NCBI GenBank assembly: GCA_038063455.1
Contig: JBBTVB010000006.1
Location: forward strand, 39,234-103,233
Direction of reading: 5' to 3'
Length of the DNA stretch: 64,000 nt
DNA from: Patescibacteria group bacterium
GTDB lineage: Bacteria; Patescibacteriota; Patescibacteriia; PEXW01
Shown: in pieces, positions 1 through 62,001 of the stretch
How the letters are laid out: every line of letters begins with the position of its first letter
Position numbering within the stretch: position 1 is the first letter of the stretch
Notes under the pieces: model-generated
The model's database searches: none
What the model was told of the DNA's origin: nothing
Seen by the model: only the letters and a program-made list of their open reading frames with translations
Program-made: the position numbers and the translations under genes

Positions 1-1466
1 CATTCTTCTGCCGGGCACGCTCCGTAGCAATCTCCACCTCTTTTTGCAGTTTAACGTTGAAGAGTCGAATCTCTTCGTACAGTCGCGCCTTTTCTAATGC
101 GCTGGCAAGCTGCGGGCCCAGAAGCTGGAGCAAATTCAGGTCGTCGTTGCTGTAGGGGTCGCCAGAGAGTTTGCCGCCCAGCAGCAGGATTGCAGCGATG
201 CGACCTTCGGTGATAACCGGCGACAAGACTGCGGCATTCAATGTATCGAGCTCAGCTTTTGAACGTTCGAGCTCTGACCTATCGTTTGCATTGGTAGTAT
301 CTTCTATACGTCGCTCAAGCGCTTCCAGAACCACAATACGTTTTTCCCGGCTCAGGTAGCGCACCAGTGAACTTGTATGGTCAAGGACGGTTTCTTTAAC
401 ACTGTCAGGCTTTTCTTGAACAAATATAGTGCCACCTTCATCAGGCAAGAGTATGCGCGCGGACTGGATTTTAAGATCACTATCAAGCCGAGCACTCACT
501 TCGGCAAGGAGCTTCTTCAAATCGATTTCTTTGTTGATTATTTCACTTAGCTGCTGGAGGGCTTTGTCGTAGTCTATGGTGGCTTTGAAAAATATTTTAT
601 CTGATATTTTTGCAAAGCTTCTTTTTAAGGGATCTAAAATGAGAACAACAAGTATACTAATAAGTAATATAGAAATATACTGATACACTTTTTCTTGGAC
701 TAATTGAGGAATTACAAATGAACTTCCAACAATCAGCGCGGAAACAATTAGAACCACTAAAGAATATGTGATTGTACGCAATACGATTAATCGTATTTCC
801 ATGAACCTATGTTTTGTTATCGCATAGGCCGTAAAGCCAACAAAAAATAATGTGGAATAACTCCCAAGATTGCTCAAATCAGAATAACCAAGTAAAGGAA
901 GAAGTAGATTTGTTATTATACCAAAAATAATAGATAATACAGTGCCAAAGAAGAGATACTTTATTTGTATCCTCTGAAGACCACTAGTTTTTCTAAAACT
1001 TGAAGCCAGCAAAAAGATGGAAATAAGAATATAAAAAATAAAGTACGCTACAAAAATGTAATAACCCTGGCTAAATATTGGTGCGATTGGGTGAATATTG
1101 ATATCGCCAACACCTGATATAATCTGATTATTAATCGTCAATAACAGAAGTAGTACTGCGGGAATAAATATTAAAAAAAATGTAAACTTTCGAATTCTTC
1201 TTTGAATTGGGAATGTTGCAGTAAATAGCAATAAAAATGTGGGAATGAAAAATGACCATACAAATGTGAGCTTTGTCCACAATAATGCATTTACATTTGT
1301 GCGCGTTTGGTCGACAATGTAATTGCTTACCGTCCAAAGAACAACAGAGACAACAAAACCAAATAAAACGCGGTTAGCTATACTTTTTTTGTTTCTCAAA
1401 AAAACCAAAAGACCAACAAGAAAATTCAAACCAGCTGAAAGAATTAAAACAAACAAATCAAGCATC
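1..1466 (-). CDS. Sensor histidine kinase, N-terminal ~490 aa only (multi-pass membrane sensor domain + GAF; dimerisation/ATPase core lies beyond the left window edge)
   Basis: Minus-strand frame is open from the ATG at 1466-1464 (MLDLFVLILSAGLNFLVGLLVFLRNKK...) to position 1. About 300 aa of hydrophobic helices are followed by a GAF-like segment (...ELDTLNAAVLSPVITEGRIAAILLLGGKLSGDPYSNDDLNLLQLLGPQLASALEKARLYEEI). A coiled-coil HisKA-like start (RLFNVKLQKEVEIATERARQKN) runs to the edge. The architecture resembles PEP-CTERM-system kinase PrsK (TIGR02916), from memory only. Confidence 0.6.
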
Positions 1467-2249
1467 TTAAGCTATATATTTTTTTTCAAATAAGTCTATC
1501 GCAATTACTTCTGGAATCACAGATGACTTCCGTTTACCTAATAAGATGAAAAATGATTCCGCAATCATGATGCTCGAAGCTAGGGTCTGCGCGAGTGCAA
1601 TATTTGGAATCGCAATTTTTTTCATGACCACCTTCTCTATGGTTTCTTGTTGAATGTAACTAGTTCTGATAGGTGCATATTTTTCTGCTGGAACATTTAC
1701 TGCATTTACTTCTTCTCTGTTCATACCATCTTTTAAGCCAAGGAACTCATTAAATGAAAGACCCCTGGGATCAAATATTAATACGGATGCGCCATAGCCA
1801 ATCGCTTGTGGAGCGAGTACAAATTTGTTCTGTTTACGCGCTTCACTAGTAAGAATGTATGAGTAATACAATTCGTTATAATCAATACAATCGTAAATAA
1901 TGTCGGCCTTTGCAACTATTTCAGATACATTCTTTTCTGTAAGACCTTCCGAGTAAACCTTAATACTCGCGGCAGGATTAATATCATTCAAAGTCTCTCC
2001 GACAACTTCTGCTTTATTTCTTCCTATTGTACTTTTAAATGCACAAAACTGGTTATTGATGTTGACATCGTTATATTTATCAAAATCAGCAATAATTAAA
2101 GACTCGATACCAGACCGTGCGAGTATCTGAGAAGAGATGCTACCCATACCACCACAACCTAATACAGCGACCGCCTTTTTACGTAAAGTTTGTTGTTCAG
2201 TTTCAGAAAAAATTCCAATATTGCGGTCAAACATTTCTTCGTAATTCAT
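1467..2249 (-). CDS. ThiF/MoeB/HesA-family E1-like adenylyltransferase
   Basis: 260 aa. Rossmann motif VAVLGCGGMGS and the E1 signature DFDKYNDVNINNQF (D-x-D-x-V-x-x-N-x-N-R/Q) are present. The length is typical of standalone ThiF-like proteins. Confidence 0.8.
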   Translation of the reverse strand: MNYEEMFDRNIGIFSETEQQTLRKKAVAVLGCGGMGSISSQILARSGIESLIIADFDKYNDVNINNQFCAFKSTIGRNKAEVVGETLNDINPAASIKVYSEGLTEKNVSEIVAKADIIYDCIDYNELYYSYILTSEARKQNKFVLAPQAIGYGASVLIFDPRGLSFNEFLGLKDGMNREEVNAVNVPAEKYAPIRTSYIQQETIEKVVMKKIAIPNIALAQTLASSIMIAESFFILLGKRKSSVIPEVIAIDLFEKKYIA

Positions 2250-2255
2250 ATATTT

Positions 2256-2732
2256 CTAATTAAATAGTGTAAGTATAACTTTCAAACCGCCAGAATAAAT
2301 CATAATCCATACAAGAAAGAATAACACATTGTTAGTAAGAACTAAAATAATTCTTTCTTTGGGTGGAAAATCTACCAAAGATATATAAACCGTTGTTGGA
2401 AGCGGACCAATTGTAACAGCTAAAATTAGGGTCGAAATGACCTTCCCATATTTTACGAAACTTTCACGTTTTCTTAATAACTCTTCTTCTTTCCGTTTTA
2501 TCCAACCCTGAGTGAGTACTACGATCTTATTTCCTGAAATTATTTTATTTTGGTAAAGGTACAATATGAAAAAAGAAAGAAGAATAAAAACTATTGAAAA
2601 AATACAAAAGGTGTAGATACTTCCAATGAGTACAATTGAAGATATCAGAAGACCCTCACCAAAGATTACCAACAGTACAGAGCCAATTATTGCAACTAAC
2701 GTCCCTGAAATTTTTACTATGTATCGTATCAT
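2256..2732 (-). CDS. Small integral membrane protein (4 predicted TM), unknown function
   Basis: 158 aa and highly hydrophobic. There is a 4-nt overlap with the upstream acyltransferase gene and a 6-nt gap to the ThiF-like gene, so it is likely co-transcribed. Confidence 0.45.
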   Translation of the reverse strand: MIRYIVKISGTLVAIIGSVLLVIFGEGLLISSIVLIGSIYTFCIFSIVFILLSFFILYLYQNKIISGNKIVVLTQGWIKRKEEELLRKRESFVKYGKVISTLILAVTIGPLPTTVYISLVDFPPKERIILVLTNNVLFFLVWIMIYSGGLKVILTLFN

Positions 2733-3424
2733 GAAATTGAATACCCCTTCTTTTGCTCATCAAATTTAATTGTCGCGTCTTGTAAATACATAAATAGTCG
2801 AGGATTGTTCCTTTGCAAACTTACTTCGAAATCCTTGACACTCAATATACATGGAAAGGTAAGCCCTTGATACAGACTAGGTTGCCCAATTTTTTTAAAT
2901 GGTATACCTATTTTTAGGACTACTGGAAGTAATCGCTCATCCATCACAGAAAATATATTTTTAATATTGTGCTTCTTTACGTACAAAAAAATCCCCTTTA
3001 TTAAAACCAACATTAGATGATGGCGTCTAAATTCTTTAGCTACGATAAGCCTTGAAATTTCAGCTGACTCATTCCTTTGATAATTGTTAACGTTAATGTC
3101 AATATTGAAATGTTTTTCGATCGGAAACCCATTGGGTGAATCAAGTATAAGTCTTACAGTCGCAGCAATTTCCTTCTTTAAATCTCGAATCACAAAATGT
3201 ACCGAAAAAGAATCCCAATTATCTTTTTCACGACCATTTTCTGAAAGATTTTTGTCAATATACTTATACTCCTCAATATAAACTTGATATCTAAGGCGAT
3301 GAAGTTCATCTAACTCATCAGGGTTTTTGGTGGTATAGAATGTAAATTTTTGATAAAAACTTTTATAAAACCACCAGAATTCAATTTCTCTTCGAATTTT
3401 TTTTACCCAGGGGAAAATTATCAT
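2729..3424 (-). CDS. GNAT-fold N-acyltransferase of the N-acyl amino acid synthase / LuxI-like family (Acetyltransf_5, PF13444-like)
   Basis: 231 aa. The segment LHRLRYQVYIEEYKYID...GREKDNWDSFSVHFVIRDLKKEIAATVRLIL matches the conserved RLRyeVF..E.gw....g.E.D.fD...hHlv.....G..RL core of FeeM/exosortase-associated acyltransferases. This is from recall of the family, not a search. Confidence 0.6.
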   Translation of the reverse strand: MIIFPWVKKIRREIEFWWFYKSFYQKFTFYTTKNPDELDELHRLRYQVYIEEYKYIDKNLSENGREKDNWDSFSVHFVIRDLKKEIAATVRLILDSPNGFPIEKHFNIDINVNNYQRNESAEISRLIVAKEFRRHHLMLVLIKGIFLYVKKHNIKNIFSVMDERLLPVVLKIGIPFKKIGQPSLYQGLTFPCILSVKDFEVSLQRNNPRLFMYLQDATIKFDEQKKGYSIS

Positions 3425-3441
3425 TGTTTTCTATACTTTTA

Positions 3442-4854
3442 TTATATTGCTAATTGCTCATCAGCATTATTTCTTAGTTTCAGCATATTTTCTGACAAAA
3501 TCACCCCTAGTAGAACGGGAATAATTTTCACCTGCGCCTCACGTAAAGATAGAAACAAATCGCTGTCTAACCTAACTTTATTACCGCTTAACAGCGCGAA
3601 ACCCAAAATATCCTCGCCTTTCCCAAATGGGGTAACAATATCAATCTTTTTTGCCTTAAGGTACTTGTAGGCAACAGCACACTCTTTACGCTCGTTAGAT
3701 AGCCCCTCCTCGCTACGCAGGGCTAATTCTTCGGTTACCAATATTTGCCCTGTCCGTTTTAAAATCTTAATGAATACCTGGCTATTATTAATCTTCTCAG
3801 TAGATGAGAAAGCTGTAAAGTTTAAGTTTGTCTTATCGACAAAATATACGACAGAACTACTAAAATGATACTCTTCTCTAAAGATTTTCTCTAGGCCCAT
3901 GATAAATTCTTTTACTGAAGTTTTTTGTACTATCTTAGGCAATACTAACATGGATTCAATCCGCCTCTCCTCGTGTGTTCGTAAAAAGTTCTGTGCCTTG
4001 GAAATAACTGTAGGTATGGTAAGTAATGCAAAAATTGCCGAGAGCGCAGATGGCATCAAGACTCTTATAAATGCATCTTTTGTTGCAACAACAGCATGCA
4101 AAACCATAAAGAGGATAGCGTATGCAATGCCAACCAAAATATACAGCGCCAGCGTAGCAACTGATGTGCGAAAAATTAGACGTATGCCCAAAAAGCGATA
4201 CCGCGTAATTGCATAGGCAGCAAGTCCTACAAAAATACAAGAAAATGTTGAGTCTAGAACATTCACCTGCACACTGTTTGCGAGCATGGGAAGAACAAAG
4301 TCAACAAAAATTACAGGGGCTACCGGCAACAGTAATGCAAGGGTAACTAATCCGAATTGTTTTCTTCTCAATCCATTTTCTCGATGCCATGCTTTTGCAA
4401 TATGATAAATTGCCAGAAGAAGCAGACCGGCCACCCAGAAAGCGTAGATAGAAAATAGCGGCCCTAATTCACCATACGAGGCACTTTCTTGCGCTGTCTG
4501 TAAGAAAGACTGCACCATTAAACCTGGTACAAATGTAAACAGCGCAATCAAAAAGGTTACAACGAGTACGCAAAAAATTAAAAATTTGCTTAGCGGCCGT
4601 TGAATCAACGATCTTATCCAAATATAATTGAATCCGGCTACTAAAGAACCTAACGCAAATGTCAACGCGAGAAAGGTAAATGAATTTACTTGGTATAAAC
4701 TTAAAAAACTCGCAAAAGCCCAGGTGCTTATGGTAAACGCTACCAGTGCAAACCACCTCCTATAGGCCACGCCCTTTGCGCGTGTTGCTACAAAAATACC
4801 TAGACTAAGATTGGCTACACTGGAAAGAAGGGCAAAAAATTGGATGATGTTCAT
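3442..4854 (-). CDS. Multi-pass membrane sensor + C-terminal GAF protein (kinase-less paralog of the histidine kinase at 1-1466)
   Basis: 470 aa with about 8 hydrophobic helices. It ends in a GAF-like stretch (KIDIVTPFGKGEDILGFALLSGNKVRLDSDLFLSLREAQVKIIPVLLGVILSENML), and the stop comes right after the GAF with no HisKA/HATPase. Confidence 0.6.
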   Translation of the reverse strand: MNIIQFFALLSSVANLSLGIFVATRAKGVAYRRWFALVAFTISTWAFASFLSLYQVNSFTFLALTFALGSLVAGFNYIWIRSLIQRPLSKFLIFCVLVVTFLIALFTFVPGLMVQSFLQTAQESASYGELGPLFSIYAFWVAGLLLLAIYHIAKAWHRENGLRRKQFGLVTLALLLPVAPVIFVDFVLPMLANSVQVNVLDSTFSCIFVGLAAYAITRYRFLGIRLIFRTSVATLALYILVGIAYAILFMVLHAVVATKDAFIRVLMPSALSAIFALLTIPTVISKAQNFLRTHEERRIESMLVLPKIVQKTSVKEFIMGLEKIFREEYHFSSSVVYFVDKTNLNFTAFSSTEKINNSQVFIKILKRTGQILVTEELALRSEEGLSNERKECAVAYKYLKAKKIDIVTPFGKGEDILGFALLSGNKVRLDSDLFLSLREAQVKIIPVLLGVILSENMLKLRNNADEQLAI

Positions 4855-4855
4855 A

Positions 4856-6292
4856 CTAAGTTGATACCTGCTTCTGTGCTGCTACAATCGCGTTGTAATA
4901 CATAACCGAGGTTTGAATATGCGGAAACAAATCTTTACGGATTTTGCGCGCAAAGGCAACATCTTCTTCGCTATAAATATTACCACCCTTTCTTTTGCCT
5001 AATACAATTGCCCCAAAAAACTGATCGCCCACTCCAAATGGAATAAGCATGCTTATGTTATTTTTCTCTAAAATTCCATAAATCTTTTGCAAAAGAATTG
5101 CTTCTTCATCATTTAACCCTTCCGCTTCCAGAATTATTTCTTCTGCAATACGTACATCCTCAAATTGTCTTAGGCACTGGAAAAAAGGGTCCTGATACGA
5201 AAACACAGATTTATACGCATGACCCGCAAAAGGCTCTAAAAAACCAGTCTTGCGGTTATACCAAATAAAACCCATCTCTTTAACTTGGAACTGCTTTTGT
5301 ATTTGTGGCAATGCTTCGGCCATAAGCTTTTGTAAGGGTAGCTCGGGCTTCCCTTTAAGGATCGGTGCATCAACTTTAGGTGCTTTATACAGGGGCGGAA
5401 AAATAACAGTTGTAAACAAATACTGAATACCTTGGCGCAGAAGAAACGCCAAACCAATCCCAAATATAAAAAGAATGCTAAATGCAGCCTCACTATTCAA
5501 ACTTACAGTTTCAACAAGGTACCTAAATGTTTGAAGTAAAGATATAAGCAATATTCCACCTGCCCCACCGTAAAAAATTGTGTATACAAATGCTCGACCC
5601 ACTGCTTGTCGAAGGTTCAATAATCTATAGCGGAAAATTGCCCGTATACTAAGTAAGCTAAACAACAAGCCTGTGTTTGAAAAAAATATATACGCATCTG
5701 GGCTAATAGGACTCACTATTGATACGTATGCGCTAAGAATTACCAAAAAAACCATTGGTAACAAAAAACCAAGTGCAACATACTCTAGTTGCTTTTTTTT
5801 AATACCTGTCGAAGCTTTGTAATTTTTAAAAATTCCCATACAACCCAATACTACTATGATGCTTATTCCAGAAATGTAAATCGCGTAGTAACTTGGAGTA
5901 AAGCTCAAAAACTCATCTTTATTTGGAAAAAAATCGGTAACAAATGGTAGTACTATTACAACGCCCGTAACAAAAAACTGTAGGAACGAAAAAAAATTTG
6001 ATTTTATGATTTTAACAGGAAAACGCCAGCTAAATTGTGTGAATGAAAAGGCGACGAGTACAGCTGCGATAAGATCGATGGCAGATAAAATTGAATTCAC
6101 CCTTCCACCGGAGACAACTAGTGCGTCGACATTCACGGACAAAAGCCAAAGGAACGAAAATAATATTACAAAAAAATAATACCTGCCTCCAATATTTTTC
6201 CTCCAACCTTTTATGGCTAAATATCCAACAAACACAAAAAGTCCGACGTTAACGGCGGACAGCAGGTAAATTGCCAGGCGGATTGAGTTCAT
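4856..6292 (-). CDS. Multi-pass membrane sensor + C-terminal GAF protein (second kinase-less paralog)
   Basis: 478 aa with the same architecture. The GAF-like C-terminus reads ISMLIPFGVGDQFFGAIVLGKRKGGNIYSEEDVAFARKI. The gene stops 1 nt before the next gene's start at 4854. Confidence 0.6.
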   Translation of the reverse strand: MNSIRLAIYLLSAVNVGLFVFVGYLAIKGWRKNIGGRYYFFVILFSFLWLLSVNVDALVVSGGRVNSILSAIDLIAAVLVAFSFTQFSWRFPVKIIKSNFFSFLQFFVTGVVIVLPFVTDFFPNKDEFLSFTPSYYAIYISGISIIVVLGCMGIFKNYKASTGIKKKQLEYVALGFLLPMVFLVILSAYVSIVSPISPDAYIFFSNTGLLFSLLSIRAIFRYRLLNLRQAVGRAFVYTIFYGGAGGILLISLLQTFRYLVETVSLNSEAAFSILFIFGIGLAFLLRQGIQYLFTTVIFPPLYKAPKVDAPILKGKPELPLQKLMAEALPQIQKQFQVKEMGFIWYNRKTGFLEPFAGHAYKSVFSYQDPFFQCLRQFEDVRIAEEIILEAEGLNDEEAILLQKIYGILEKNNISMLIPFGVGDQFFGAIVLGKRKGGNIYSEEDVAFARKIRKDLFPHIQTSVMYYNAIVAAQKQVST

Positions 6293-6408
6293 AGGCAGCA
6301 GTTCATCAGAAGTGCCCAGATTTTGGGCAGTCCCCTAACTGGGGAATGGTTGACGTTTGCCGCCTACATTATGCAAGATTTTGGGGGAAAGGGCAAATTG
6401 TAAAACGG

Positions 6409-7134
6409 CTATTGTGAGCCTGTACCCCTACTAACCTGAATTCTTGGAATCGATCCAGAAAAAACGACATGAAGGTTGTGGTAGCTCCCTTTTTCACTCC
6501 TCCAAACATTAAAAAAATTAAACTTACTCCAGGTCCAAACCGCCACTGCATGGCCCTTACAGGCACCATTATCCTGATATGAACCTTCAAGTACAATCAA
6601 ATCATCTTGACCATCTGCATCTGCATCGGTAATAGCCAGCGAACAATTAGGGGTGTCCAAATTTGAAGATTGCCAAGCCGGAAAAAGACCAGTTTCAGTT
6701 ACGTTGTAAACAAACAGGTGATTCTTAACGGAGATATCGTTCTCTTCCTCTTTCACCCAAAATGGCCGCGACGCGCCATAGTCACCTGGCTTCCATATAA
6801 CCATAACAAGTTGCTGGCCCAAACCCATAACATTGCCAAAAGCCATTGCAGTTACTTGCCAATCCTTTGGTGAAGACCATTTTTGAATGCCAGACTCACC
6901 AACGGTAAGTAAACCATTACGCAATGTATACGTTTCTTCTTTGCCATTCCCATTCAGGTCAGCTTGCGTCTTACTAGGTGCAGCCGTTCGATTCCCGGGT
7001 CGTACCTCATGGAATTTTTGTTGAGTGTTGTTCCATTGCCAAGCGGTCTCTTTGGGCTGGGTGCTTGATAGAAAGCGAATCATCAACAGAACAACAGCAC
7101 TTACAACTAGTAAAGGCCATTTTTCGCACGGCAT
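6409..7134 (-). CDS. Secreted FG-GAP/VCBS-repeat protein with N-terminal signal anchor
   Basis: 241 aa with an N-terminal hydrophobic segment. Ca-binding FG-GAP-like motifs DLNGNGKEE and ITDADADGQDDLIVLEG are present. Confidence 0.5.
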   Translation of the reverse strand: MPCEKWPLLVVSAVVLLMIRFLSSTQPKETAWQWNNTQQKFHEVRPGNRTAAPSKTQADLNGNGKEETYTLRNGLLTVGESGIQKWSSPKDWQVTAMAFGNVMGLGQQLVMVIWKPGDYGASRPFWVKEEENDISVKNHLFVYNVTETGLFPAWQSSNLDTPNCSLAITDADADGQDDLIVLEGSYQDNGACKGHAVAVWTWSKFNFFNVWRSEKGSYHNLHVVFSGSIPRIQVSRGTGSQ

Positions 7135-7137
7135 CAG

Positions 7138-9390
7138 CTACTGTGCAGAAATACTCTGCAACCACTTATCAACTGCGGGAACGCTAGATTGATTTTCATA
7201 GCGCTTATTAAGAATTTCTCGCCAAGTCGTATCGGTGAGCCGATCTTTGGCCGGATGAATGAACTCATAGTGCGAGTACACTCCACCCTTTGCAAGCCGA
7301 AGCTTGCCTTCTACCGGGACGACGACATAGATTGATAGGATGTCGCCAGTTGCCTCTTGTAATACTGTGCCATTCGGGTCCGTTGCTACATCAGAAACGA
7401 GTGCCGCGGGATTTTGATCCAAGTAGTTTATTTGATCAATTCCAGCCTTTTTCATCTCCTCGCGGTTTGCTTCAAGCCAAAAGTGCTCCAGAGATCCACC
7501 GAACGTACGGATAAACTCATAATCCTCCTTAGATATTTGAGCGCCATTAAGCTCCTTTTCCGCAATACTCTTAAGACGACGGCTGAGCGTTTCTAATCGA
7601 GTTAGATTTTCCGCAAAGGCAGAGCTTATTAAGCCTCGGATTTGCAGCCCCTCCTTTGTGAAAAGCGCCAGTGAAGCAAGTCGCGCAAAAACTTCGGGCT
7701 CGGGTTCCACGTAACCGCGATCATCGAGTTCATCCGGTGGGCCGCCACCTAGCTCAGAGTACGCCTGCTTTGCGTATAAAACCGTATCATGCTTTAGCTC
7801 TGTCCAACTACTTAAGTAAGTATTCAGATTCTTCCATTGCCACGCAGTGGATCGCATGAAGCTTGGGTAGCCGTAATCACGCTCCAGCGTAAGGGGCTGA
7901 AGCGCATACAGCCAACTCCAGTACAAATTCTGCGTCCAATGCTCAACTCTAATTTTGCTGGTGTAGTCTCGCATAACTTGTATCTGCTCTGGGTACAATT
8001 TGTACTCCGTCTCACCCATGTTCGTCAGCAATTCTAGTGCGGCGTCTGAACCCATAGCTGCGGGGATGTCCAAGGCTTTGGGCAGCATGCGTGATTCTGG
8101 CACATTACCCCCGCACTTCATGGACCCACTTTTTGTGCCGACCTCACGACAGATAAGACGTTGAAAAATGGAGGCATCCAAAGTAAACCGCTGGCCCATG
8201 AAGCGAAAACCTTTAATACTTTCTTCCCGATTACTATTCGGATCTACAGAAGGAGCTAAGATCGGAATGGAGTTAATCTGGGGCGGTGCTAGTTTTTTAG
8301 CGTCGCTAACGAACGCTGAAAATACCGCATCATTTCCGGCTACCTTCAAAATATCAAAAGATTTGTAGTGTTTGTTTATTAGGTTAAAAAAATCAATATA
8401 TGTGATGTCGTCGCTCTCGCCAACAAAAAATTTCGTCGGTTCATAAATTGTGTTCCAGAGTTTTGCATTCTTTTCATCTTGCATTGCTAGAGTTATAAGG
8501 ACGGCCGAACGAACTTCTTCCGGATTTTTTACAAGAAAGGTCAACCGACCGTACCACATCATCGTTTTAAAGTAAGTTTTGAGCAGATCCGTTTTATCAT
8601 AGTGACCTCGGGGAACGTATTGCGTAAAATCCTCCATCGTCGAATTCTGATTGCCAAGCTGCATGACTGCTGAATACCCATCTGCTCTCTCATGCGCTGA
8701 TATACTCTCAAGGTCCGCAATAATGGCGGATGTAGGCGCAGTTGAAGGCAGCGCAGCATTTGAATCGAGCAGGCGGGCGGCTACTCCAAAGAAACCAGCA
8801 TTACGGGTGGCCGCATTTTCCCACCCAGTGCCTTTAAGTTGTGTTGCATATTTGTCGGAGGTGGAAAGAAGGTTCGCGGTAAGTTCTTTTAGCGCCGAAT
8901 GTAGATGATCTTCTTCAACTCTCTTTAGAAGGTAGTCGTAGAAAACGTGGTACGTATGGAGCACCGAATCTGTCGTGACAAAACTGGGGGCATACCCATA
9001 ACGATTTCTTTCATAGATTGGATAAAATTCATCTTGCCCAAAACCCTCTGCGATTACAAAGTCATTCTTTTCAACCAAAGCCTTCTGGGCATCAGAAAGC
9101 TCAAATTGTGTTCTATTAGTAACATTTGTTAAGTCTTTCTCGACTTTATATTCTTTTACAAGCGGTTTTACGTTAGTCGATGTTGGCTTGTAGGTAGCGA
9201 AATTTGATGCCTGTGCTTTTGGAATAGAAAGGGGGGCCGGCTTGGTTATGTTCTCATCTGTAGCCTCCGCTGTTACCGAAGAGCCCTCGCGGGCATCCTC
9301 GTGCTTTAAATAGGAACTCAATATAGAGCCGCCGCTTACTAAGATGAGCAGTACGACAGCTAATAGAAAAAATTTCTTACTTAAGTACAT
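7138..9390 (-). CDS. Large secreted / membrane-anchored protein of unknown function (possibly DUF3160-like)
   Basis: 750 aa. An N-terminal signal anchor (FFLLAVVLLILVSGG) is present. The stop is 4 nt before the downstream FG-GAP gene start. The family assignment is from memory only. Confidence 0.45.
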   Translation of the reverse strand: MYLSKKFFLLAVVLLILVSGGSILSSYLKHEDAREGSSVTAEATDENITKPAPLSIPKAQASNFATYKPTSTNVKPLVKEYKVEKDLTNVTNRTQFELSDAQKALVEKNDFVIAEGFGQDEFYPIYERNRYGYAPSFVTTDSVLHTYHVFYDYLLKRVEEDHLHSALKELTANLLSTSDKYATQLKGTGWENAATRNAGFFGVAARLLDSNAALPSTAPTSAIIADLESISAHERADGYSAVMQLGNQNSTMEDFTQYVPRGHYDKTDLLKTYFKTMMWYGRLTFLVKNPEEVRSAVLITLAMQDEKNAKLWNTIYEPTKFFVGESDDITYIDFFNLINKHYKSFDILKVAGNDAVFSAFVSDAKKLAPPQINSIPILAPSVDPNSNREESIKGFRFMGQRFTLDASIFQRLICREVGTKSGSMKCGGNVPESRMLPKALDIPAAMGSDAALELLTNMGETEYKLYPEQIQVMRDYTSKIRVEHWTQNLYWSWLYALQPLTLERDYGYPSFMRSTAWQWKNLNTYLSSWTELKHDTVLYAKQAYSELGGGPPDELDDRGYVEPEPEVFARLASLALFTKEGLQIRGLISSAFAENLTRLETLSRRLKSIAEKELNGAQISKEDYEFIRTFGGSLEHFWLEANREEMKKAGIDQINYLDQNPAALVSDVATDPNGTVLQEATGDILSIYVVVPVEGKLRLAKGGVYSHYEFIHPAKDRLTDTTWREILNKRYENQSSVPAVDKWLQSISAQ

Positions 9391-9456
9391 AAATAATATT
9401 CATACTACGAAATTTGACTTTGGGGATACTGAATATTCCTCCCATTCCAGAGTTCA

Positions 9457-10065
9457 CTAGTAAAAATTGAAAGAACTGAGAGTTTTATTGTACTCCTCTT
9501 CAAATGTTTCAAAGGCGCTCTTTGCGCCAACACTACCTGTTATTTGAATTGCAACATTTCCCTTCTTAACACTTGCAACAACAAAAGGAAATGTAAAAAA
9601 CTCCGATACTGTGCGTATCGCCTCTTGACCATCAACTACGACCGCTTTTTGAGATCGAATTGTATTGTCCTGCACCCCCTCCGCTGCAAGAGTTTGAAGA
9701 CTTACGCTGGGATCAATGTGTTTGGCGGCTATCGTGAACTTTAGTCCAGCCAGCAATTCAGTATCAACATTTTGTACTGCCGCGATCGGGTCAAGAAAGG
9801 AAATCACTTCGCTGTTTGCGAATGGTTCAAGCGTCCATGAGGCGGGAATGGAAATACTATACCTATAGTTGGTATTTGTTAAAACATTTTTCTCTTTGCC
9901 TATAGAGTACACTACCGATGATACCTGGCTCTCAACTTGAGTTCCCTGTTTATCTTTCTTCGTCAACCAAAAAGCCGTCCCAATAGCACCTATTGCAAAG
10001 AAGGCTGTGATAAGAACATAGTGCACGCTGCGGTATGAGAATGAAAGGTGAAATGTATTTTGCAT
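9457..10065 (-). CDS. Membrane-anchored hypothetical protein
   Basis: 202 aa with one N-terminal TM helix (VLITAFFAIGAIGTAFWL) and a soluble C-terminal domain. Confidence 0.4.
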   Translation of the reverse strand: MQNTFHLSFSYRSVHYVLITAFFAIGAIGTAFWLTKKDKQGTQVESQVSSVVYSIGKEKNVLTNTNYRYSISIPASWTLEPFANSEVISFLDPIAAVQNVDTELLAGLKFTIAAKHIDPSVSLQTLAAEGVQDNTIRSQKAVVVDGQEAIRTVSEFFTFPFVVASVKKGNVAIQITGSVGAKSAFETFEEEYNKTLSSFNFY

Positions 10066-16545: not shown

Positions 16546-16591
16546 GCGCTCGGGTGCAAAGTCAGGCATGCGCGCGGGTACAAAGTAACCT
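16546..16591. repeat. Tandem direct repeat, 2 x ~23 bp (aggcatgcgctcgggtgcaaagtc / aggcatgcgcgcgggtacaaagta)
   Basis: It lies in the divergent region between the zinc-ribbon gene (-) and the DedA gene (+). Confidence 0.5.
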
Positions 16592-16688
16592 TTACTCACA
16601 AAAAGTCCTTTCGCTTTGGTGTATATGTTTTGTAATACCAGAGTCTATACGTCTGCTCGGTGAATGTCAAGCAGTGTATACTGCCCCT

Positions 16689-17348
16689 ATGGCAAAAACT
16701 ATCCGGGCACAGGATATTGGCATCATCATTTTTACCTTGGCCGCCGCTATCCTGTTTGTGGTGTGGGAACCCACACTGCCATCGCAGGCTACGGTAACGC
16801 AGTGGGTGCAGCGCTTTGGCGCAGCGGGCCCTTTAGCAGTTATTGGCCTGGTGGTGGTTGAAGTAGTTATTGCGCCTATCCCCGGCAGTTTTATTCCTAT
16901 TACCGTCGGCGCGCTCTTCGGCGTCTGGCCGGGCGTGCTCTATACCTGGGTCGGCAATGTCATTGGCGCGGTGATTGCTTTTTGGCTGGCGCGCCGCATT
17001 GGCCGGCCGCTCGTGATCCACTTCGTCAAACCTGCCACCCTCGATCGCTTGGATACCTTTATCCACCGAAACCCGCGCTTGCTCTGGTTGGTCTACATCC
17101 TGCCGGTCTACCCCATTGACCTCATAACTTTTGCCGTTGGGCTTTCCAGAATGAGTTTCAAGCGCTTTATGGTTATGATGACCATAAGCTTCTCTTTGCA
17201 CCAGCTCATTCTTACGGCAGTGGGCGAAAGACTCTTGGCAGCCACTGGCGGCACTCGCATCCTGATAGCGAGCTTGGCCGTGCTGCTGGTGCTTGGCACT
17301 CTAGGGGTGGAACGGCACTTTACGACAAAAGAAAAAACCACCGGCTAA
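16689..17348 (+). CDS. DedA/TVP38-family membrane protein
   Basis: PIPGSFIPITVGALFGVWPGVLYTWVGNVIGAVIAFWLARRIGRP matches the DedA core. The start is chosen at MAKTIRAQDIG; the ORF track begins at 16554. Confidence 0.65.
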   Translation: MAKTIRAQDIGIIIFTLAAAILFVVWEPTLPSQATVTQWVQRFGAAGPLAVIGLVVVEVVIAPIPGSFIPITVGALFGVWPGVLYTWVGNVIGAVIAFWLARRIGRPLVIHFVKPATLDRLDTFIHRNPRLLWLVYILPVYPIDLITFAVGLSRMSFKRFMVMMTISFSLHQLILTAVGERLLAATGGTRILIASLAVLLVLGTLGVERHFTTKEKTTG

Positions 17349-52266: not shown

Positions 52267-52287
52267 CTAGGTTCTGGTAACCGAGGT

Positions 52288-52360
52288 GCCGGAGACCCCG
52301 CCGTGGCGGGGCGACCTTCGCTTTACAAAAGCGTTGCTCTACCAGCTGAGCTACTCCGGC
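52288..52360 (-). pseudogene. tRNA-Thr(UGU)-derived pseudo-tRNA: own acceptor stem (GCCGGAG/CTCCGGC), intact D- and anticodon arms identical over ~42 nt to tRNA-Thr(UGU), T-arm replaced by GC hairpin CCCCGCC-GTG-GCGGGG
   Basis: Minus-strand read: GCCGGAGTAGCTCAGCTGGTAGAGCAACGCTTTTGTAAAGCGAAGGTCGCCCCGCCACGGCGGGGTCTCCGGC. There is no TΨC loop. Confidence 0.55.
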
Positions 52361-57870: not shown

Positions 57871-57912
57871 AAAGAAAATGGGACCTAACAAAAATAGAGA
57901 AGGAGGCCTAAA

Positions 57913-58173
57913 GTGGACATTGAAATCATTGGACTCATAGTTCTATCATTAGTAATTGCTGCTCGGGTGTTGTGGGTTCGGCGCCCATTCAAAAGGAATG
58001 AACGAGTAACGTTCCGTAGTGATAAGGATTTTGATACCTACGGTATAAAACCTACGGACTTCATGTTCATTACGCGCATCATCATGGGGAATGGACCCAT
58101 GGCAAAAATTGAAGGTATTAAAGAGTACGTACCTGTAAAAAAATTGAAACGATGGCCGAGTTGGAAAGTATAA
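57913..58173 (+). CDS. Small membrane protein, unknown function
   Basis: 86 aa with an N-terminal TM (IIGLIVLSLVIAARVLWV) and a strong RBS. Confidence 0.4.
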   Translation: MDIEIIGLIVLSLVIAARVLWVRRPFKRNERVTFRSDKDFDTYGIKPTDFMFITRIIMGNGPMAKIEGIKEYVPVKKLKRWPSWKV

Positions 58174-58180
58174 AGTAAAG

Positions 58181-58210
58181 ACGTGCCCATCGGCACGTCT
58201 TTTTATTATC
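58181..58210 (+). terminator. Rho-independent terminator AGACGTGCC-CATC-GGCACGTCT + TTTTATT
   Basis: A perfect 9-bp stem, directly after the 57913-58173 gene. Confidence 0.65.
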
Positions 58211-58240
58211 TACGCCTTCCGCTCTGTAAGTATCAAAATT

Positions 58241-58501
58241 TCAAAATATGGGTGGCATTAGAAGTGCTACGAGCACAAAGCCTAGTGCGTACAAAAATAG
58301 AGTGAGCCAGGTAGCTCCAAACGACTTCCATAACCCGACATGTTTTCTCATTATCCAAACTGTAAGTATTACCGGTGATAAAATTGCTACAGTTAAAGTA
58401 ACTATTGCACTACTTTCTTGGAAACTGTACACAAGTAGCGCACTAACTACCCCGGAGATAAATCCTACATATGTGAAGATTCTAATAAGTCTCATAATCA
58501 T
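58241..58501 (-). CDS. Small integral membrane protein
   Basis: 86 aa with 3 TM helices, in an AT-rich context. Confidence 0.35.
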   Translation of the reverse strand: MIMRLIRIFTYVGFISGVVSALLVYSFQESSAIVTLTVAILSPVILTVWIMRKHVGLWKSFGATWLTLFLYALGFVLVALLMPPIF

Positions 58502-59015
58502 AGTAATGATGCTCGCAAATTGTATCTGGTTCTATAATAAATGCTGCTTGATCTAAATCTGATCTAAAAACAGGTCGTTTTAGGGATCTTCGGCATTTTT
58601 GATAATCATATTTGTATGATATCCACCTATGACACGAGCCTAAAATATAGCCGTCTGTAGAAACAAGAGGTTCTTTTAGAACAACAACTGGTCTAAGTCT
58701 ACTAAAAATTAATTTTCCTGTTGGATCACATATTTTAGTAGTACATTCACTGTTTTGCTTGCACGCTACACCTGCATCAGGAGCCAATTTGCTACATGCC
58801 GCAATCGAGGGTGAGAAAGACTTACCTTGAAGAGGGCAGAAAACTTTCTTGAGTATCCCTACCCGAATTGAACTAGTCGGGTTAGCTATACTAAAGGTCA
58901 GATAAAATACTGCAATCACCGGTATAGCAGACAAAAAAACTACTAGTGCTATTCTAAAAAACTTACTTTGCACTTTTGGCTGCGGATTACTTGGTTGTGA
59001 TTTGGGTGTCTCCAT
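58482..59015 (-). CDS. Membrane-anchored Cys-rich secreted protein
   Basis: 177 aa with an N-terminal TM (FFRIALVVFLSAIPVIAVFYLTF) and about 10 Cys in the ectodomain. Confidence 0.35.
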   Translation of the reverse strand: METPKSQPSNPQPKVQSKFFRIALVVFLSAIPVIAVFYLTFSIANPTSSIRVGILKKVFCPLQGKSFSPSIAACSKLAPDAGVACKQNSECTTKICDPTGKLIFSRLRPVVVLKEPLVSTDGYILGSCHRWISYKYDYQKCRRSLKRPVFRSDLDQAAFIIEPDTICEHHYYDYETY

Positions 59016-59027
59016 AGATCAATTTTA

Positions 59028-61490
59028 TCACGCCTTCCGCTCCGCCACCATGGGTGGTGGCGCGGCCACGCCGAGCTGGGAGCGGTCTAAGATTTCTTGT
59101 TCAACTTCGGCCCGAACTTTACCGTATTGCTGGCGCGATTGCTGCACCAGCTGCTCGGCTAGGCCGGGCGTGGGCGAGGCTAACGGCAGGGTCTGCATGG
59201 TAAATGGCTTGGATGCCGTATTGTCGATGAGAAGTTTAACAATGGCCTCGTACTTCTCGATATTCGTCACATCGTACTGGCTAAAGGTTGGTGCAAAGGC
59301 CTGGGCAAAAATTTCGGCATCTTCCACGCCCACGCGGAAGGCGGCAATAGTACCCACGTTGCCAAACACGGCATCACGAATCTTTGTGTCTTGCTTCTCG
59401 ACCAGCTGGCCCACGTACTGGTGCGCAATGGTCAGGTTGAGTCGGTACTTTCGCGCTTCGGATAAAATCGTTGCCACGGAATCGGTGACGAAATTCTGGA
59501 ATTCGTCCACGTACAGGAAAAAGTCTTTGCGCTGCTCTTGAGGCAGACTCGCCCGGCGCAAGGCCGCCATTTGGAGTTTGGCAACGATAATCAAACCAAG
59601 CAGATTGGCATTCACCTCGCCCGTGCTTCCCTTGGCCAAGTTCACAAGGAGGATTTTGCCGTCATTCATTATCTGCTGGAAATTGAAGCCGCTCTTGGAC
59701 TGGCCAATGACGTTGCGCATCATGCTGTTTTCCACGAAGCGGCCAACTTTGCTAATGAGGTAGCCGAGCATTTCGGACTTGTGGAAGTCACTGGTCTTGG
59801 CCATTTCTTTTTCCCAGAACGCACGGACAATGGGGTCGGTGACTTTGGCGACCTTGGCCTTTTGGAACGCCGGGTCGGTAAACATGCGCGGGATCTCCAC
59901 AATCGTGCCCGGGTTTTCCCGGTCCGCCATGAGCGTGAGCATGACGTTGCGCATGTTGTGCTCGAACATCGGGCCGATGACTTCGGGCGGGAAAAGCTTC
60001 ATGAAAATGGCAATCATTTCCTGCACCGCAAAATCCTGCGCGTCTGGTGTTTCGGCATCCAGCATGTTGAGGCCTACGGGAAACTCAACGTCGGATGGAT
60101 TGAAGTGGATAACATCTTTCCAACGATGTTCAGGGATGCGCGCCAAAATATCTTGGATGAGATCACCGTGCGGGTCCACCACGCAGACGCCGTCGCCATT
60201 GGCAATATCCTGCAACGCCATATTGGCAATGAGCACAGACTTGCCGACGCCAGATTTCCCAATGACGTACACGTGACGACGACGGTCTTCCCGGCCGATG
60301 CGAATTTGGGTTTCCGCTCCGCGGAAATTACTGACACCCATGAGCACGCCTTCCTTGGGTGCGTTGACCGGTGGGGGCGCACTGCGAGACATGACCCAGG
60401 CGATGTTCGGTGTTTCGGTGCTTGGTAAAGGCAAGTGCCACAAGCTGGCTACCTCTTCCACGCTCAACACAGAACTGCGACCACCATCAAACGCGCGATA
60501 GATGAAGTCGTGAATGAGTCGGTCTTTTTTAAACGGGTCTTTCCGTTCAAAACCGTTACCCGTGTCAAACGCATTGTACTGGCCAAAGGCATCCTGAATA
60601 TTTTTGAGACGGATAAGCGCCGCTTGTTGCGTGGCGCTAGAAACCACAATACGGACATTCACGTCCAACCCCGCCTTGCTATTTTTCTCTTGCACGCGTT
60701 GCACCAGCACCTCCTGGGCGGGGTTCAACTGCTTGGGCATATCTGACATGGCGTCTTTCTTCTTACCGCTGCTAAAGAACATGCCAAAAATTTCTTTGGC
60801 AATATTTTTGGCCATGGAGTTGGAAACTGTGCCGCCGCTGCGCAAGCTGTGAATAGTACTGGTGGCACGGCTATGCCAGCGCGGGTTGGAAGACCGGCAG
60901 ACGTACTGGATGACCGCACCTTCTTCCGGGCTCAATTTGGACAGTGCATTGGTTAGGCCGGAAAGCGGATCCACGTCCATGCGCCGGTACGACAAGATTG
61001 GTAGCACCGTATTTTTCTTAAGTCGCAAATTCGCCGCCACCACGTGCGAGGTTGGCCGAAAGGGGTTGTACTCGGTGGTCTGGGTAATGTCGGAGGATGG
61101 GTACTGGGCGTGCAGCTGCTGCTCCATGAACTCGCGCATGGGTTCGGGCACGATAATGTAAAAACGAATTTCCCCGCGGTCCGCAACGATTTCTAACGTA
61201 AAGTGGTCGTCCCGCCCGCGGCCGAGCGTTTGGTACCAGCGTTGCGCCCGCATATTGCCCAAAAATGACAGGAATGATTCGCCAACGCTAATCTGCTCTT
61301 GCAGCTGCTGGATGCGCGACGCGCCTTGGCCGCTCTCTTCTTCCTGCTGCTCTTTGGGCAGCATCACCTGGAGGCAGACGTGCTGCACCGGGGCTGCGCT
61401 TCGACTTCGCTTCCGGAACACAAGCATAACCGCCGCGCCGATAACCAGCAGGCCGAGGGTTGCGAAAAGGATAATAGAGATGAGCGGCAT
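59028..61490 (-). CDS. Membrane-anchored FtsK/HerA-superfamily ATPase, TraG/TraD/VirD4 coupling-protein-like
   Basis: It has an N-terminal TM (MPLISIILFATLGLLVIGAAVMLV) and an N-terminal domain of about 400 aa of unknown function. Walker A is VIGKSGVGKSVLIANM and Walker B is FFLYVDEFQNF, the TraG/TraD-type DEF motif. The start is chosen so its ATG sits 1 nt after the upstream gene's stop. Confidence 0.55.
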   Translation of the reverse strand: MPLISIILFATLGLLVIGAAVMLVFRKRSRSAAPVQHVCLQVMLPKEQQEEESGQGASRIQQLQEQISVGESFLSFLGNMRAQRWYQTLGRGRDDHFTLEIVADRGEIRFYIIVPEPMREFMEQQLHAQYPSSDITQTTEYNPFRPTSHVVAANLRLKKNTVLPILSYRRMDVDPLSGLTNALSKLSPEEGAVIQYVCRSSNPRWHSRATSTIHSLRSGGTVSNSMAKNIAKEIFGMFFSSGKKKDAMSDMPKQLNPAQEVLVQRVQEKNSKAGLDVNVRIVVSSATQQAALIRLKNIQDAFGQYNAFDTGNGFERKDPFKKDRLIHDFIYRAFDGGRSSVLSVEEVASLWHLPLPSTETPNIAWVMSRSAPPPVNAPKEGVLMGVSNFRGAETQIRIGREDRRRHVYVIGKSGVGKSVLIANMALQDIANGDGVCVVDPHGDLIQDILARIPEHRWKDVIHFNPSDVEFPVGLNMLDAETPDAQDFAVQEMIAIFMKLFPPEVIGPMFEHNMRNVMLTLMADRENPGTIVEIPRMFTDPAFQKAKVAKVTDPIVRAFWEKEMAKTSDFHKSEMLGYLISKVGRFVENSMMRNVIGQSKSGFNFQQIMNDGKILLVNLAKGSTGEVNANLLGLIIVAKLQMAALRRASLPQEQRKDFFLYVDEFQNFVTDSVATILSEARKYRLNLTIAHQYVGQLVEKQDTKIRDAVFGNVGTIAAFRVGVEDAEIFAQAFAPTFSQYDVTNIEKYEAIVKLLIDNTASKPFTMQTLPLASPTPGLAEQLVQQSRQQYGKVRAEVEQEILDRSQLGVAAPPPMVAERKA

Positions 61491-61491
61491 G

Positions 61492-62001
61492 CTAGCGCGG
61501 CGGCAAAAGGCTGACGAGTTTTTGGGCTTTGATCTTTGCTTCTTGTTCCACAAAAAATTTGTTCACGCCGGGAATCGATGAGAGCCAGCGCCGGATGACA
61601 TCGACGATGGCCGAAACCTTCACTTTGACCTGGCCAAGTAGGTTGTTGACTTCTTGCGCAGCCTGCTCCCCTGCCACTTTGAATTTCTGCTGCTCGGCCG
61701 GCGGCAACGCTTTAAAAATATCTTCCAAGCCTTCGGCCAGCACCTGCTCAACCTGCTGCAACTGCTGCTCCGTGGCGTTTATCGGCAAGGGCATGGCGGG
61801 CACTGGCGGTGCCACAGCCGGTGTTTCTTTTACCTGGCTTGGCACTTCGGGATGTTGCTCAAAACGCTCACCGTGTTTTTCTAAGGCTTCGCGGACTTTT
61901 TCGGGCCGTACTTCGGGCGGTCGTTCGGGTGCCCGATCGACAAGCTCAAAAATATCGATGGGTTCTTGCTCGGGTTTGGGGGCGGCGGGTTGCGCGGTCA
62001 T
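61492..62001 (-). CDS. Hypothetical protein, Pro-rich N-terminus (possibly partner of the TraG-like ATPase)
   Basis: The start is chosen at MTAQPAAPKPEQE. Its stop codon abuts the ATG of the ATPase gene (TAGCATG on the minus strand). Confidence 0.4.
   Translation of the reverse strand: MTAQPAAPKPEQEPIDIFELVDRAPERPPEVRPEKVREALEKHGERFEQHPEVPSQVKETPAVAPPVPAMPLPINATEQQLQQVEQVLAEGLEDIFKALPPAEQQKFKVAGEQAAQEVNNLLGQVKVKVSAIVDVIRRWLSSIPGVNKFFVEQEAKIKAQKLVSLLPPR

Follow-up and report, generated by a model that had tools for sequence, protein, structure and literature searches.

We analyzed a 64,000-nt stretch of the genome of a Patescibacteria group bacterium (assembly GCA_038063455.1, contig JBBTVB010000006.1, positions 39,234 to 103,233; hereafter the window), one end of which holds a compact cluster of predicted acyl-amino-acid synthesis and sensory genes. 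The cluster consists of six genes, all on the minus strand and arranged head to tail between window positions 1 and 6292. In order of transcription, these are S3 (4856..6292), a kinase-less sensor paralog of 478 aa with approximately nine transmembrane (TM) helices and a C-terminal GAF-like domain; S2 (3442..4854), a kinase-less sensor paralog of 470 aa with a HisKA_7TM domain, two TM helices, and a GAF-like domain; GNAT (2729..3424), a FeeM/LuxI-fold protein of 231 aa and predicted N-acyl amino acid synthase; TM4 (2256..2732), a four-helix membrane protein of 158 aa that may belong to the DedA/PF06695 superfamily; ThiF (1467..2249), a predicted stand-alone ThiF-like adenylating enzyme of 260 aa; and the 5' part of a sensor histidine kinase gene (1..1465), which encodes aa 1-488 of 943. 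The successive gaps are 1, 17, -4 (an overlap), 6, and 1 nt. An earlier note on this DNA, made from the sequence alone, had described six same-strand genes with 1- to 17-nt gaps or overlaps in an AT-rich region and had recognized a PF13444-like GNAT, a ThiF-like E1, and a small 4-TM protein. Our recomputed spacings are the same, the GC content of the cluster is 0.31-0.40 compared with ~0.53 in the remaining window, and Pfam and NCBIfam searches support the GNAT and ThiF assignments.

On the source contig, the complete 943-aa kinase is composed of HisKA_7TM, two further TM helices, two successive GAF domains, HisKA, and HATPase_c. The window holds HisKA_7TM, the two TM helices, and the first GAF domain (GAF1); HisKA begins approximately 200 codons past the left edge, and GAF2 and HATPase_c likewise lie beyond it. 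Pfam identifies HisKA_7TM (8.4e-16) and GAF_2 (3.4e-6) in the in-window part and HisKA (1.3e-15) and HATPase_c (4.7e-28) in the full kinase, both outside the window. The full kinase with HisKA that the earlier note had described is therefore correct for the source contig, although HisKA falls outside the window and there are two GAF domains, not one. The note had also proposed three paralogous membrane-plus-GAF sensors, only one of them with a kinase. Pfam calls HisKA_7TM in S2 (1.2e-10) and the kinase only, gives no match above threshold for S3, which has ~9 hydrophobic segments, and sees no GAF domain in S2 or S3, but the proposal holds as remote homology: the three proteins are 19-23% identical to one another and colinear over their whole length (E-values of 6e-11 for S3 and S2, 7e-6 for S3 and the kinase, and 3e-15 for S2 and the kinase), and the C-terminal domains of S3 (7.9e-12) and S2 (2.1e-6) are matched by a GAF1 profile made from eight orthologous kinases, with an hhalign probability of 98.9%. 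Copies 2 and 3 do end after this domain, as had been noted, and both are without a transmitter domain. No autoinducer-binding or LuxR domain was found in the six cluster proteins or in the called genes of the fetched flanks.

The GNAT protein matches FeeM (1.9e-16, 60.7 bits), PF13444 (4.2e-15, 56.7 bits), and Autoind_synth PF00765 (2.8e-8), and with 132.9 bits it passes TIGR03694 (cutoff, 111.95), the model for the acyltransferase associated with the PEP-CTERM/exosortase system. Its homologs are nearly all from Patescibacteria. The product is much more likely to be an N-acyl amino acid than an N-acyl-L-homoserine lactone (AHL), judging from these families and because the ThiF partner needs a free carboxylate, which an AHL does not have.

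The ThiF protein matches PF00899 at 2.1e-34, and its best NCBIfam models (PRK08223, PRK14851, and PRK14852) are uncharacterized; the 989-position PRK14852 model is matched by both ThiF and GNAT, which gave a first hint of GNAT-ThiF fusions. An exhaustive profile search with an alignment of ThiF proteins from the Candidate Phyla Radiation (CPR) retrieved 520 representative clusters at E ≤ 1e-30. Among the best 150 of these 520, 12 are FeeM-ThiF fusions and about 11 join ThiF to a nitroreductase region at the C-terminus, which is the OxzB/TrzS architecture (the nitroreductase query matched 13 proteins among the best 150, two of them outside a C-terminal extension); fusions of ThiF to a methyltransferase or a glycosyltransferase also occur there. 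An N-terminal FxRNxG motif is common to the window ThiF and its fused relatives, and an adjacent FeeM-ThiF pair was also found in a Chitinivibrionales metagenome-assembled genome (MAG). By these comparisons, which use the domain architecture of the relatives and the motif, the window ThiF is closely related to ThiF enzymes fused to or paired with N-acyl amino acid synthases. Residues 62-68 carry VNINNQ, which is present in 16/16 ThiF proteins of the CPR clade; the relatives, including those fused to FeeM or nitroreductase, have NxNRQ. A contig scan with the ThiF alignment returned 4 loci only, and the derived patterns are specific to the CPR clade. The AlphaFold 2 (AF2) model has a pLDDT of 88, and its nearest Protein Data Bank (PDB) entries are ThiF 1zfn and AclA 9egb; AclA from Tenacibaculum discolor (9egb/9egc), the nearest solved relative, adds nothing on function. 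A phmmer search with four nitroreductase domains from the fusions among the best 150 found no nitroreductase homolog in the 64-kb window or the fetched loci. As a separate observation, one of the FeeM-ThiF fusions (P0101, 680 aa) is a PilZ-FeeM-ThiF triple fusion with an N-terminal PilZ domain, implying control of an N-acyl-amino-acid/ThiF pathway by cyclic di-GMP (c-di-GMP) in some other organism; the trzAS locus of Mycobacterium tuberculosis likewise adjoins c-di-GMP genes (PMC12856293).

TM4 is conserved within the module, with an invariant Glu in TM helix 1 and invariant W77, G109, W142, Y146, and S147. Against PF06695, a family within the DedA superfamily (bioRxiv 10.1101/2020.12.18.423352), the window protein reaches 15.6 bits where the cutoff is 30.7; 4/9 TM4 homologs give sub-threshold PF06695 matches (best, 1e-3), and one homolog matches VTT_dom at 1.6e-4. 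A more distant homolog, P0207, has a precomputed PF09335 match and lies in a TM4-ThiF-FeeM triad. The AF2 model (pLDDT, 82) shows plain helices with no informative structural match. The TM4 family resembles DedA/PF06695 proteins in its small size, its four or so helices, and a conserved acidic residue within the membrane; unlike them, the window protein scores below all gathering thresholds and its model lacks the DedA re-entrant loops. TM4 is thus a plausible but weakly supported candidate for a flippase or exporter of an amphiphilic product. We rejected the idea that the E1 acts on TM4 as its ubiquitin-like or peptide substrate, as the C-terminus of TM4 is variable and has no Gly-Gly. Ten kilobases from the cluster, at 16554-17348 on the plus strand, lies a gene for a canonical VTT/DedA-domain membrane protein (PF09335, 2.9e-22), so TM4 is not the sole DedA-like protein of this genome.

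We mapped the six window proteins onto 32 fetched loci. The order GNAT-TM4-ThiF-kinase recurs in seven distinct full loci (L001, L003, L005, L015, L016, L018, and L021), and about 10 other loci are partial or rearranged. Three partial loci are consistent with this order; a TM4-ThiF-GNAT(-kinase) order is seen in L025, L029, and L030, and ThiF-kinase with different upstream genes in L007, L023, L024, and L027. In 17/17 loci where the sequence continues beyond the biosynthetic genes, the next gene starts with HisKA_7TM. The earlier note had read these genes as one functional unit linking N-acyl-amide synthesis to a multi-TM/GAF kinase and had called for a neighborhood survey; the survey confirms the co-occurrence and the conservation of the module. 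The kinase-less paralogs upstream of GNAT vary in number: there are two in the window genome (~475 aa), two in L005, one in L012, and one in L031, while L015 has three 7TM-only genes in tandem (~225 aa), L016 has one, and L003 and L021 have none. The unit common to all of them is the 7TM domain, not GAF. The three L015 genes (6150-8816 of that locus), upstream of GNAT, end directly after HisKA_7TM, and stop codons crowd the interval 7506-8159 that separates the second from the third. In L007, a 263-aa protein and a 119-aa membrane protein (8814-9954), neither with a family match, precede a ThiF that is 44% identical to that of the window, and a patatin-like lipase gene precedes both; the two proteins may be unrecognized counterparts of GNAT and TM4.

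Among loci with TM4 and a NINNQ-type ThiF, identity is 47-64% for the sensor domains, whereas for the GNATs it is only 32-55%. L031 shows the reverse: its GNAT shares 80% identity with that of the window (85-98% over residues 1-160, dropping at the C-terminus), but TM4 is absent, the ThiF belongs to another lineage (25% identical, NLNRQ), and kinase identity is only 21-35% over aa 1-180 and reaches 60-98% by aa 380-460. The L032 locus has a GNAT with 68% identity and a sensor with 38-39%, and in place of TM4 and ThiF, between GNAT and the kinase, there is a 574-aa PaaK/coenzyme-F390-synthetase-like enzyme (1095-2819; no Pfam match at E ≤ 0.1; PDB 4r1l, 2e-10; TIGR02155, 4.5e-14). The TM domain of the kinase sensor thus appears to track the tailoring enzymes, not GNAT or the kinase core. 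The exchange of ThiF for an unrelated, predicted carboxylate-adenylating enzyme in L032 further indicates that adenylation would be the conserved chemical need.

A compositional boundary also lies inside the kinase gene. The GC content at third codon positions (GC3) is 0.26-0.30 for GNAT, TM4, ThiF, and kinase codons 1-290, 0.52 in GAF1, and 0.71 in the remaining kinase, compared with 0.57-0.60 in housekeeping genes. The step is also present in L003, L005, L015, and L021, making five distant genomes with that of the window (PGK and enolase are only 48% identical to those of the window where comparable); across loci (kinase gene at 1-1465 of the window and 10785-13616 of L001), GC3 is 0.23-0.32 over codons 1-290 and 0.48-0.73 from codon ~480 onward, and in L001 and L003, the two loci measured, the 3' part of the kinase gene exceeds PGK and enolase. 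The AT-rich region is therefore an old, maintained compositional block bounded at the junction between the sensor and the cytoplasmic part of the kinase. A reading of the earlier note's AT-rich island as simply horizontally acquired is not borne out: the block occupies the same syntenic place in distant relatives, with PGK-enolase-iPGM downstream, the low GC sits at third codon positions, and it stops inside the kinase gene, and on these grounds a recent island of horizontal gene transfer was rejected. The step may have arisen because a variable cassette that does not recombine adjoins a conserved anchor that recombines often, or because AT-rich codons are selected for. The tailoring genes and the sensor TM domain would behave as a co-diversifying cassette, which resembles, by analogy, the hypervariable regions of agr and comQXP.

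Taken together, the data point, with a probability of roughly 0.5, to a conserved operon of Patescibacteria in which a tailored N-acyl amino acid derivative is produced and coupled to a membrane sensor kinase dedicated to it; from the family memberships, the conserved layout, the absence of nitroreductase, and the co-variation, we infer the chemistry, the pairing of ligand with receptor, and what the paralogs do. By its family membership, the FeeM/TIGR03694-type GNAT would N-acylate an amino acid, and ThiF would then use ATP to adenylate the resulting N-acyl amino acid at its free carboxylate, as OxzB, TyzB, and TrzS suggest. This order is favored because the only characterized small-molecule ThiF enzymes act on that carboxylate and because the window ThiF has relatives of OxzB/TrzS architecture. 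The acyl-adenylate could cyclize to a 5(4H)-oxazolone (azlactone), which in saturated form is what the chemistry leads one to expect, or be captured by another nucleophile; without a nitroreductase-type desaturase, a saturated species of higher reactivity would result in place of a conjugated tyrazolone. The DedA/PF06695-like TM4 might move or present the amphiphile in the membrane. HisKA_7TM of the kinase would detect the product in or at the membrane and relay the signal via the two GAF domains to HisKA/HATPase_c and on to a response regulator presumably encoded elsewhere. More speculatively, the kinase-less 7TM(+GAF) paralogs could be receptor "solos": by binding the same ligand or related ones, they would modulate the kinase, for instance through heterodimerization with it or titration of the ligand. 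A self-contained locus that makes and senses its own product had been proposed before; the comparative data (17/17 kinase linkage and co-variation) speak for this, although every chemical step in it is predicted.

Several points weigh against this interpretation. The kinase is an orphan: phmmer searches with the CheY and PhoB receiver domains found no receiver domain in the 64-kb window or in the CPR loci ±10 kb, and thus no adjacent response regulator. Patescibacteria usually lack fatty-acid synthesis, which makes the source of the acyl donor a difficulty. The Arg of the NxNRQ motif, which we take to be the ATP-phosphate-binding Arg of MoeB/ThiF, is Asn in the CPR clade, so ATP handling by these ThiF proteins may differ, and the window ThiF scores only 43 bits against the NF005901 Rv1355c-family model (cutoff, 476). 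Because nitroreductase is absent, the predicted enzymes of the cluster alone cannot make a conjugated tyrazolone-type end product. The matches that link TM4 to DedA lie under threshold, and searching with its fold gave nothing informative. That the 7TM domain senses the product is argued from gene linkage and co-variation alone, and TM domains evolve fast anyway. Finally, the PaaK-like enzyme of L032 fits a role of the adenylating enzyme upstream of GNAT equally well.

The pairing of a FeeM-type synthase with a ThiF enzyme is already described as an N-acyl-oxazolone pathway, in OxzA/OxzB of Pseudoalteromonas (bioRxiv 10.1101/2020.06.11.147165) and in TyzA/TyzB/TyzC (PMC10404671) and TrzA/TrzS (PMC12856293) of M. 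tuberculosis; the pairing of a FeeM-type N-acyl amino acid synthase with a ThiF-like enzyme also appears in PMC12479983 and is reviewed in PMC12596934. In these pathways, a nitroreductase-type flavoenzyme desaturates the product; the enzymology is established, and the authors regard the physiological role as unresolved and only speculate on signaling (PMC12856293; bioRxiv 10.1101/2020.06.11.147165). The window cluster shares the FeeM-fold synthase with ThiF nearby, the 158-aa TM4 gene alone separating them, and close relatives of its ThiF have the OxzB/TrzS architecture or a FeeM fusion. It differs in that the CPR loci have no nitroreductase in or near them and carry the DedA-like TM4 between GNAT and ThiF, that the module is linked to a 7TM-GAF kinase and often to kinase-less paralogs, that ThiF carries NINNQ rather than NxNRQ and falls far under the Rv1355c-family cutoff, and that the hosts are Patescibacteria. 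The claim that the E1 and GNAT combination was undescribed hence does not stand, and LuxI-kinase pairs in the CPR have also been reported: Bernard et al. (2020) listed 18 LuxI homologs adjoining a putative sensory kinase and proposed complete AHL quorum-sensing systems (PMC7567580). Those are probably the same loci as ours or overlap with them. The product is read there as an AHL, and the passages of that report considered here do not mention ThiF, TM4, kinase-less paralogs, or cassette-like variation; insofar as the loci coincide, the ThiF partner found here would favor an N-acyl amino acid derivative. What seems to be new is the lack of nitroreductase, the DedA-like TM4, the constant orphan 7TM-GAF kinase that follows (17 loci), the variable kinase-less paralogs, the sensor domain co-varying with the tailoring enzymes and not with GNAT, and the GC3 step inside the kinase gene.

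In agr of Staphylococcus and comQXP of Bacillus, a hypervariable block made up of the genes for signal maturation and the membrane-sensor part of the kinase has conserved flanks that include the cytoplasmic part of the kinase. The layout of the present module is similar, as an analogy without homology; the predicted signal, however, is a small acyl-amino-acid derivative instead of a peptide, there is no response regulator beside the kinase, and the variation seen here lies between related lineages.

Other roles for these genes were weighed against the synthesis and sensing of a tailored product. It is unlikely, in our estimation, that the adenylating enzyme acts upstream, that is, that ThiF or its PaaK-like replacement activates a scavenged acid as the acyl donor for GNAT, yielding a plain N-acyl amino acid or amide without cyclization that the kinase would still sense. 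The enzyme that replaces TM4 and ThiF in L032 is PaaK/F390-synthetase-like, of the ANL type, whose characterized relatives make acyl-CoA donors; there is no acyl carrier protein (ACP) or other acyl-activating gene near the cluster, and the TIGR03694 GNAT of PEP-CTERM loci comes with an AMP-forming ligase (TIGR03098). Set against this, a ThiF acting on the GNAT product agrees with the fusions of ThiF to FeeM or nitroreductase among its closest relatives, every characterized ThiF paired with an N-acyl amino acid synthase works after N-acylation (PMC10404671, PMC12856293), and no known ThiF-family enzyme activates a fatty or aryl acid for a GNAT (PMC12596934). We regard as somewhat less probable again a remodeling of envelope lipids, in which GNAT would make an OlsB-like lipoamino acid, ThiF would activate that product to be joined to an acceptor in the membrane, flipping would fall to the DedA-like protein, and the kinase and its paralogs would sense the state of the membrane or envelope. 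GNAT does match OlsB ornithine N-acyltransferase models (1.9e-9 and 9e-8), TM4 resembles DedA/PF06695 proteins, which handle lipids, and C12 tyrazolones are regarded as membrane lipids of M. tuberculosis (PMC12856293); the OlsB scores, however, are far under the cutoffs of 320-350 bits, and the co-variation of sensor and tailoring enzymes within a shared compositional block is easier to explain by ligand-receptor matching.

The three further alternatives are all very improbable. LuxI-type AHL quorum sensing with the sensor kinase as receptor would agree with the PF00765 score of GNAT (34 bits, above the gathering cutoff of 24), with the JGI annotation of several homologs as N-acyl-L-homoserine lactone synthetase, and with the LuxI homolog/kinase synteny of the CPR report cited above, yet PF00765 is outscored by FeeM, PF13444, and TIGR03694, the TraI AHL-synthase models give 22-24 bits where 250-292 are required, the conserved ThiF partner would find no free carboxylate, and a LuxR-type receptor is lacking. 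Still less probable is a PEP-CTERM/exosortase-associated module composed of a PrsK-like kinase and the exosortase-associated acyltransferase, an analogy that the earlier note had drawn. GNAT passes TIGR03694, and the kinase has the PrsK-like layout of a HisKA_7TM-type multi-TM N-terminus, GAF, and kinase core, with a weak match of its in-window part to TIGR02916 (PrsK; 9.3e-10). As membership, the analogy fails: that match reaches 37.7 bits against a cutoff of 300, the receiver-domain searches found no PrsR in the 64 kb or in the related flanks, Pfam found no exosortase among six scanned multi-TM open reading frames (ORFs) outside the cluster (the rest of the MAG was not searched), no exosortase, PEP-CTERM, or exopolysaccharide (EPS) genes were seen in the fetched relatives, and ThiF stands here in place of the set of AMP-forming ligase and ACP. 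A response regulator or exosortase near the cluster, which the earlier note had advised looking for, was not found. The least probable is an E1-like modification of a protein or peptide, as in MccB/PaaA-type pathways for peptides that are ribosomally synthesized and then modified post-translationally, or in Cap2/Bil-type anti-phage systems. The usual targets of ThiF-family enzymes are the C-termini of proteins or peptides (PMC12596934), and PADLOC reports similarity to the E1 part of Cap2 E1-E2 models, but this similarity is confined to the generic Rossmann part and the other five proteins have no PADLOC match, so an anti-phage defense system was rejected. In addition, the cluster has no E2, JAB, CD-NTase, or ubiquitin-like gene, the 260-aa ThiF has no MccB/PaaA peptide-clamp domain, the TM4 C-terminus is not conserved, and the closest relatives of ThiF are fused to FeeM or nitroreductase domains.

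Around the cluster, the 116-nt intergenic region upstream of S3 (6293..6408, minus strand) is the likely operon promoter region, inferred only from its being the sole sizeable gap. It contains a single, weak promoter-like -35/-10 match at 6396..6368, and promoter and terminator scans of the region gave matches no commoner than in shuffled sequence. An Rfam scan of the window returned tRNAs only, distant from the cluster; a seventh tRNA-like match (44.9 bits) at 52287-52360 on the minus strand, between two tRNA-Thr genes, was not called by ARAGORN. Beyond the kinase, the source contig continues with a NUDIX gene and then the housekeeping genes PGK, enolase, and iPGM. Directly upstream of the cluster (6409-9390, minus strand) are genes for a 750-aa DUF3160 protein (2.7e-208) and a 241-aa protein with weak FG-GAP repeats, which do not adjoin the module in other genomes. 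A second AT-rich patch at 57900-61553 (GC 0.385 at 58-59 kb) contains small membrane-protein ORFs and adjoins the gene for an 841-aa TraG/VirD4-like type IV coupling ATPase (T4SS-DNA_transf, 1.1e-9).

A related biosynthetic pair hard-wired to a dedicated sensor kinase provides a concrete, testable ligand-receptor hypothesis, and the module is carried by genomes that are among the smallest in bacteria, in which genes that are kept likely matter. If our interpretation is true, the earlier AHL reading of CPR LuxI-kinase pairs would be revised. The uncharacterized HisKA_7TM sensor domain, and by extension PrsK-like kinases, would gain a candidate function. It is also conceivable, as a tentative extension of which we are doubtful, that Patescibacteria possess a small-molecule quorum- or partner-sensing system that diversifies like peptide pherotype loci, in which a conserved synthase would be combined with interchangeable tailoring sets (NINNQ-ThiF with the DedA-like protein, the alternative ThiF, or the PaaK-like ligase), each matched to its own 7TM sensor on a conserved GAF-GAF kinase, and arrays of receptor solos would tune the response or eavesdrop on related signals. 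In that case, N-acyl-amino-acid/azlactone-type molecules would have their first candidate receptor in the HisKA_7TM kinase, and the orphan oxazolone-type lipids would gain a physiological role. The GC3 discontinuity inside one gene is an unusual marker that could locate other co-diversifying signal-receptor cassettes.

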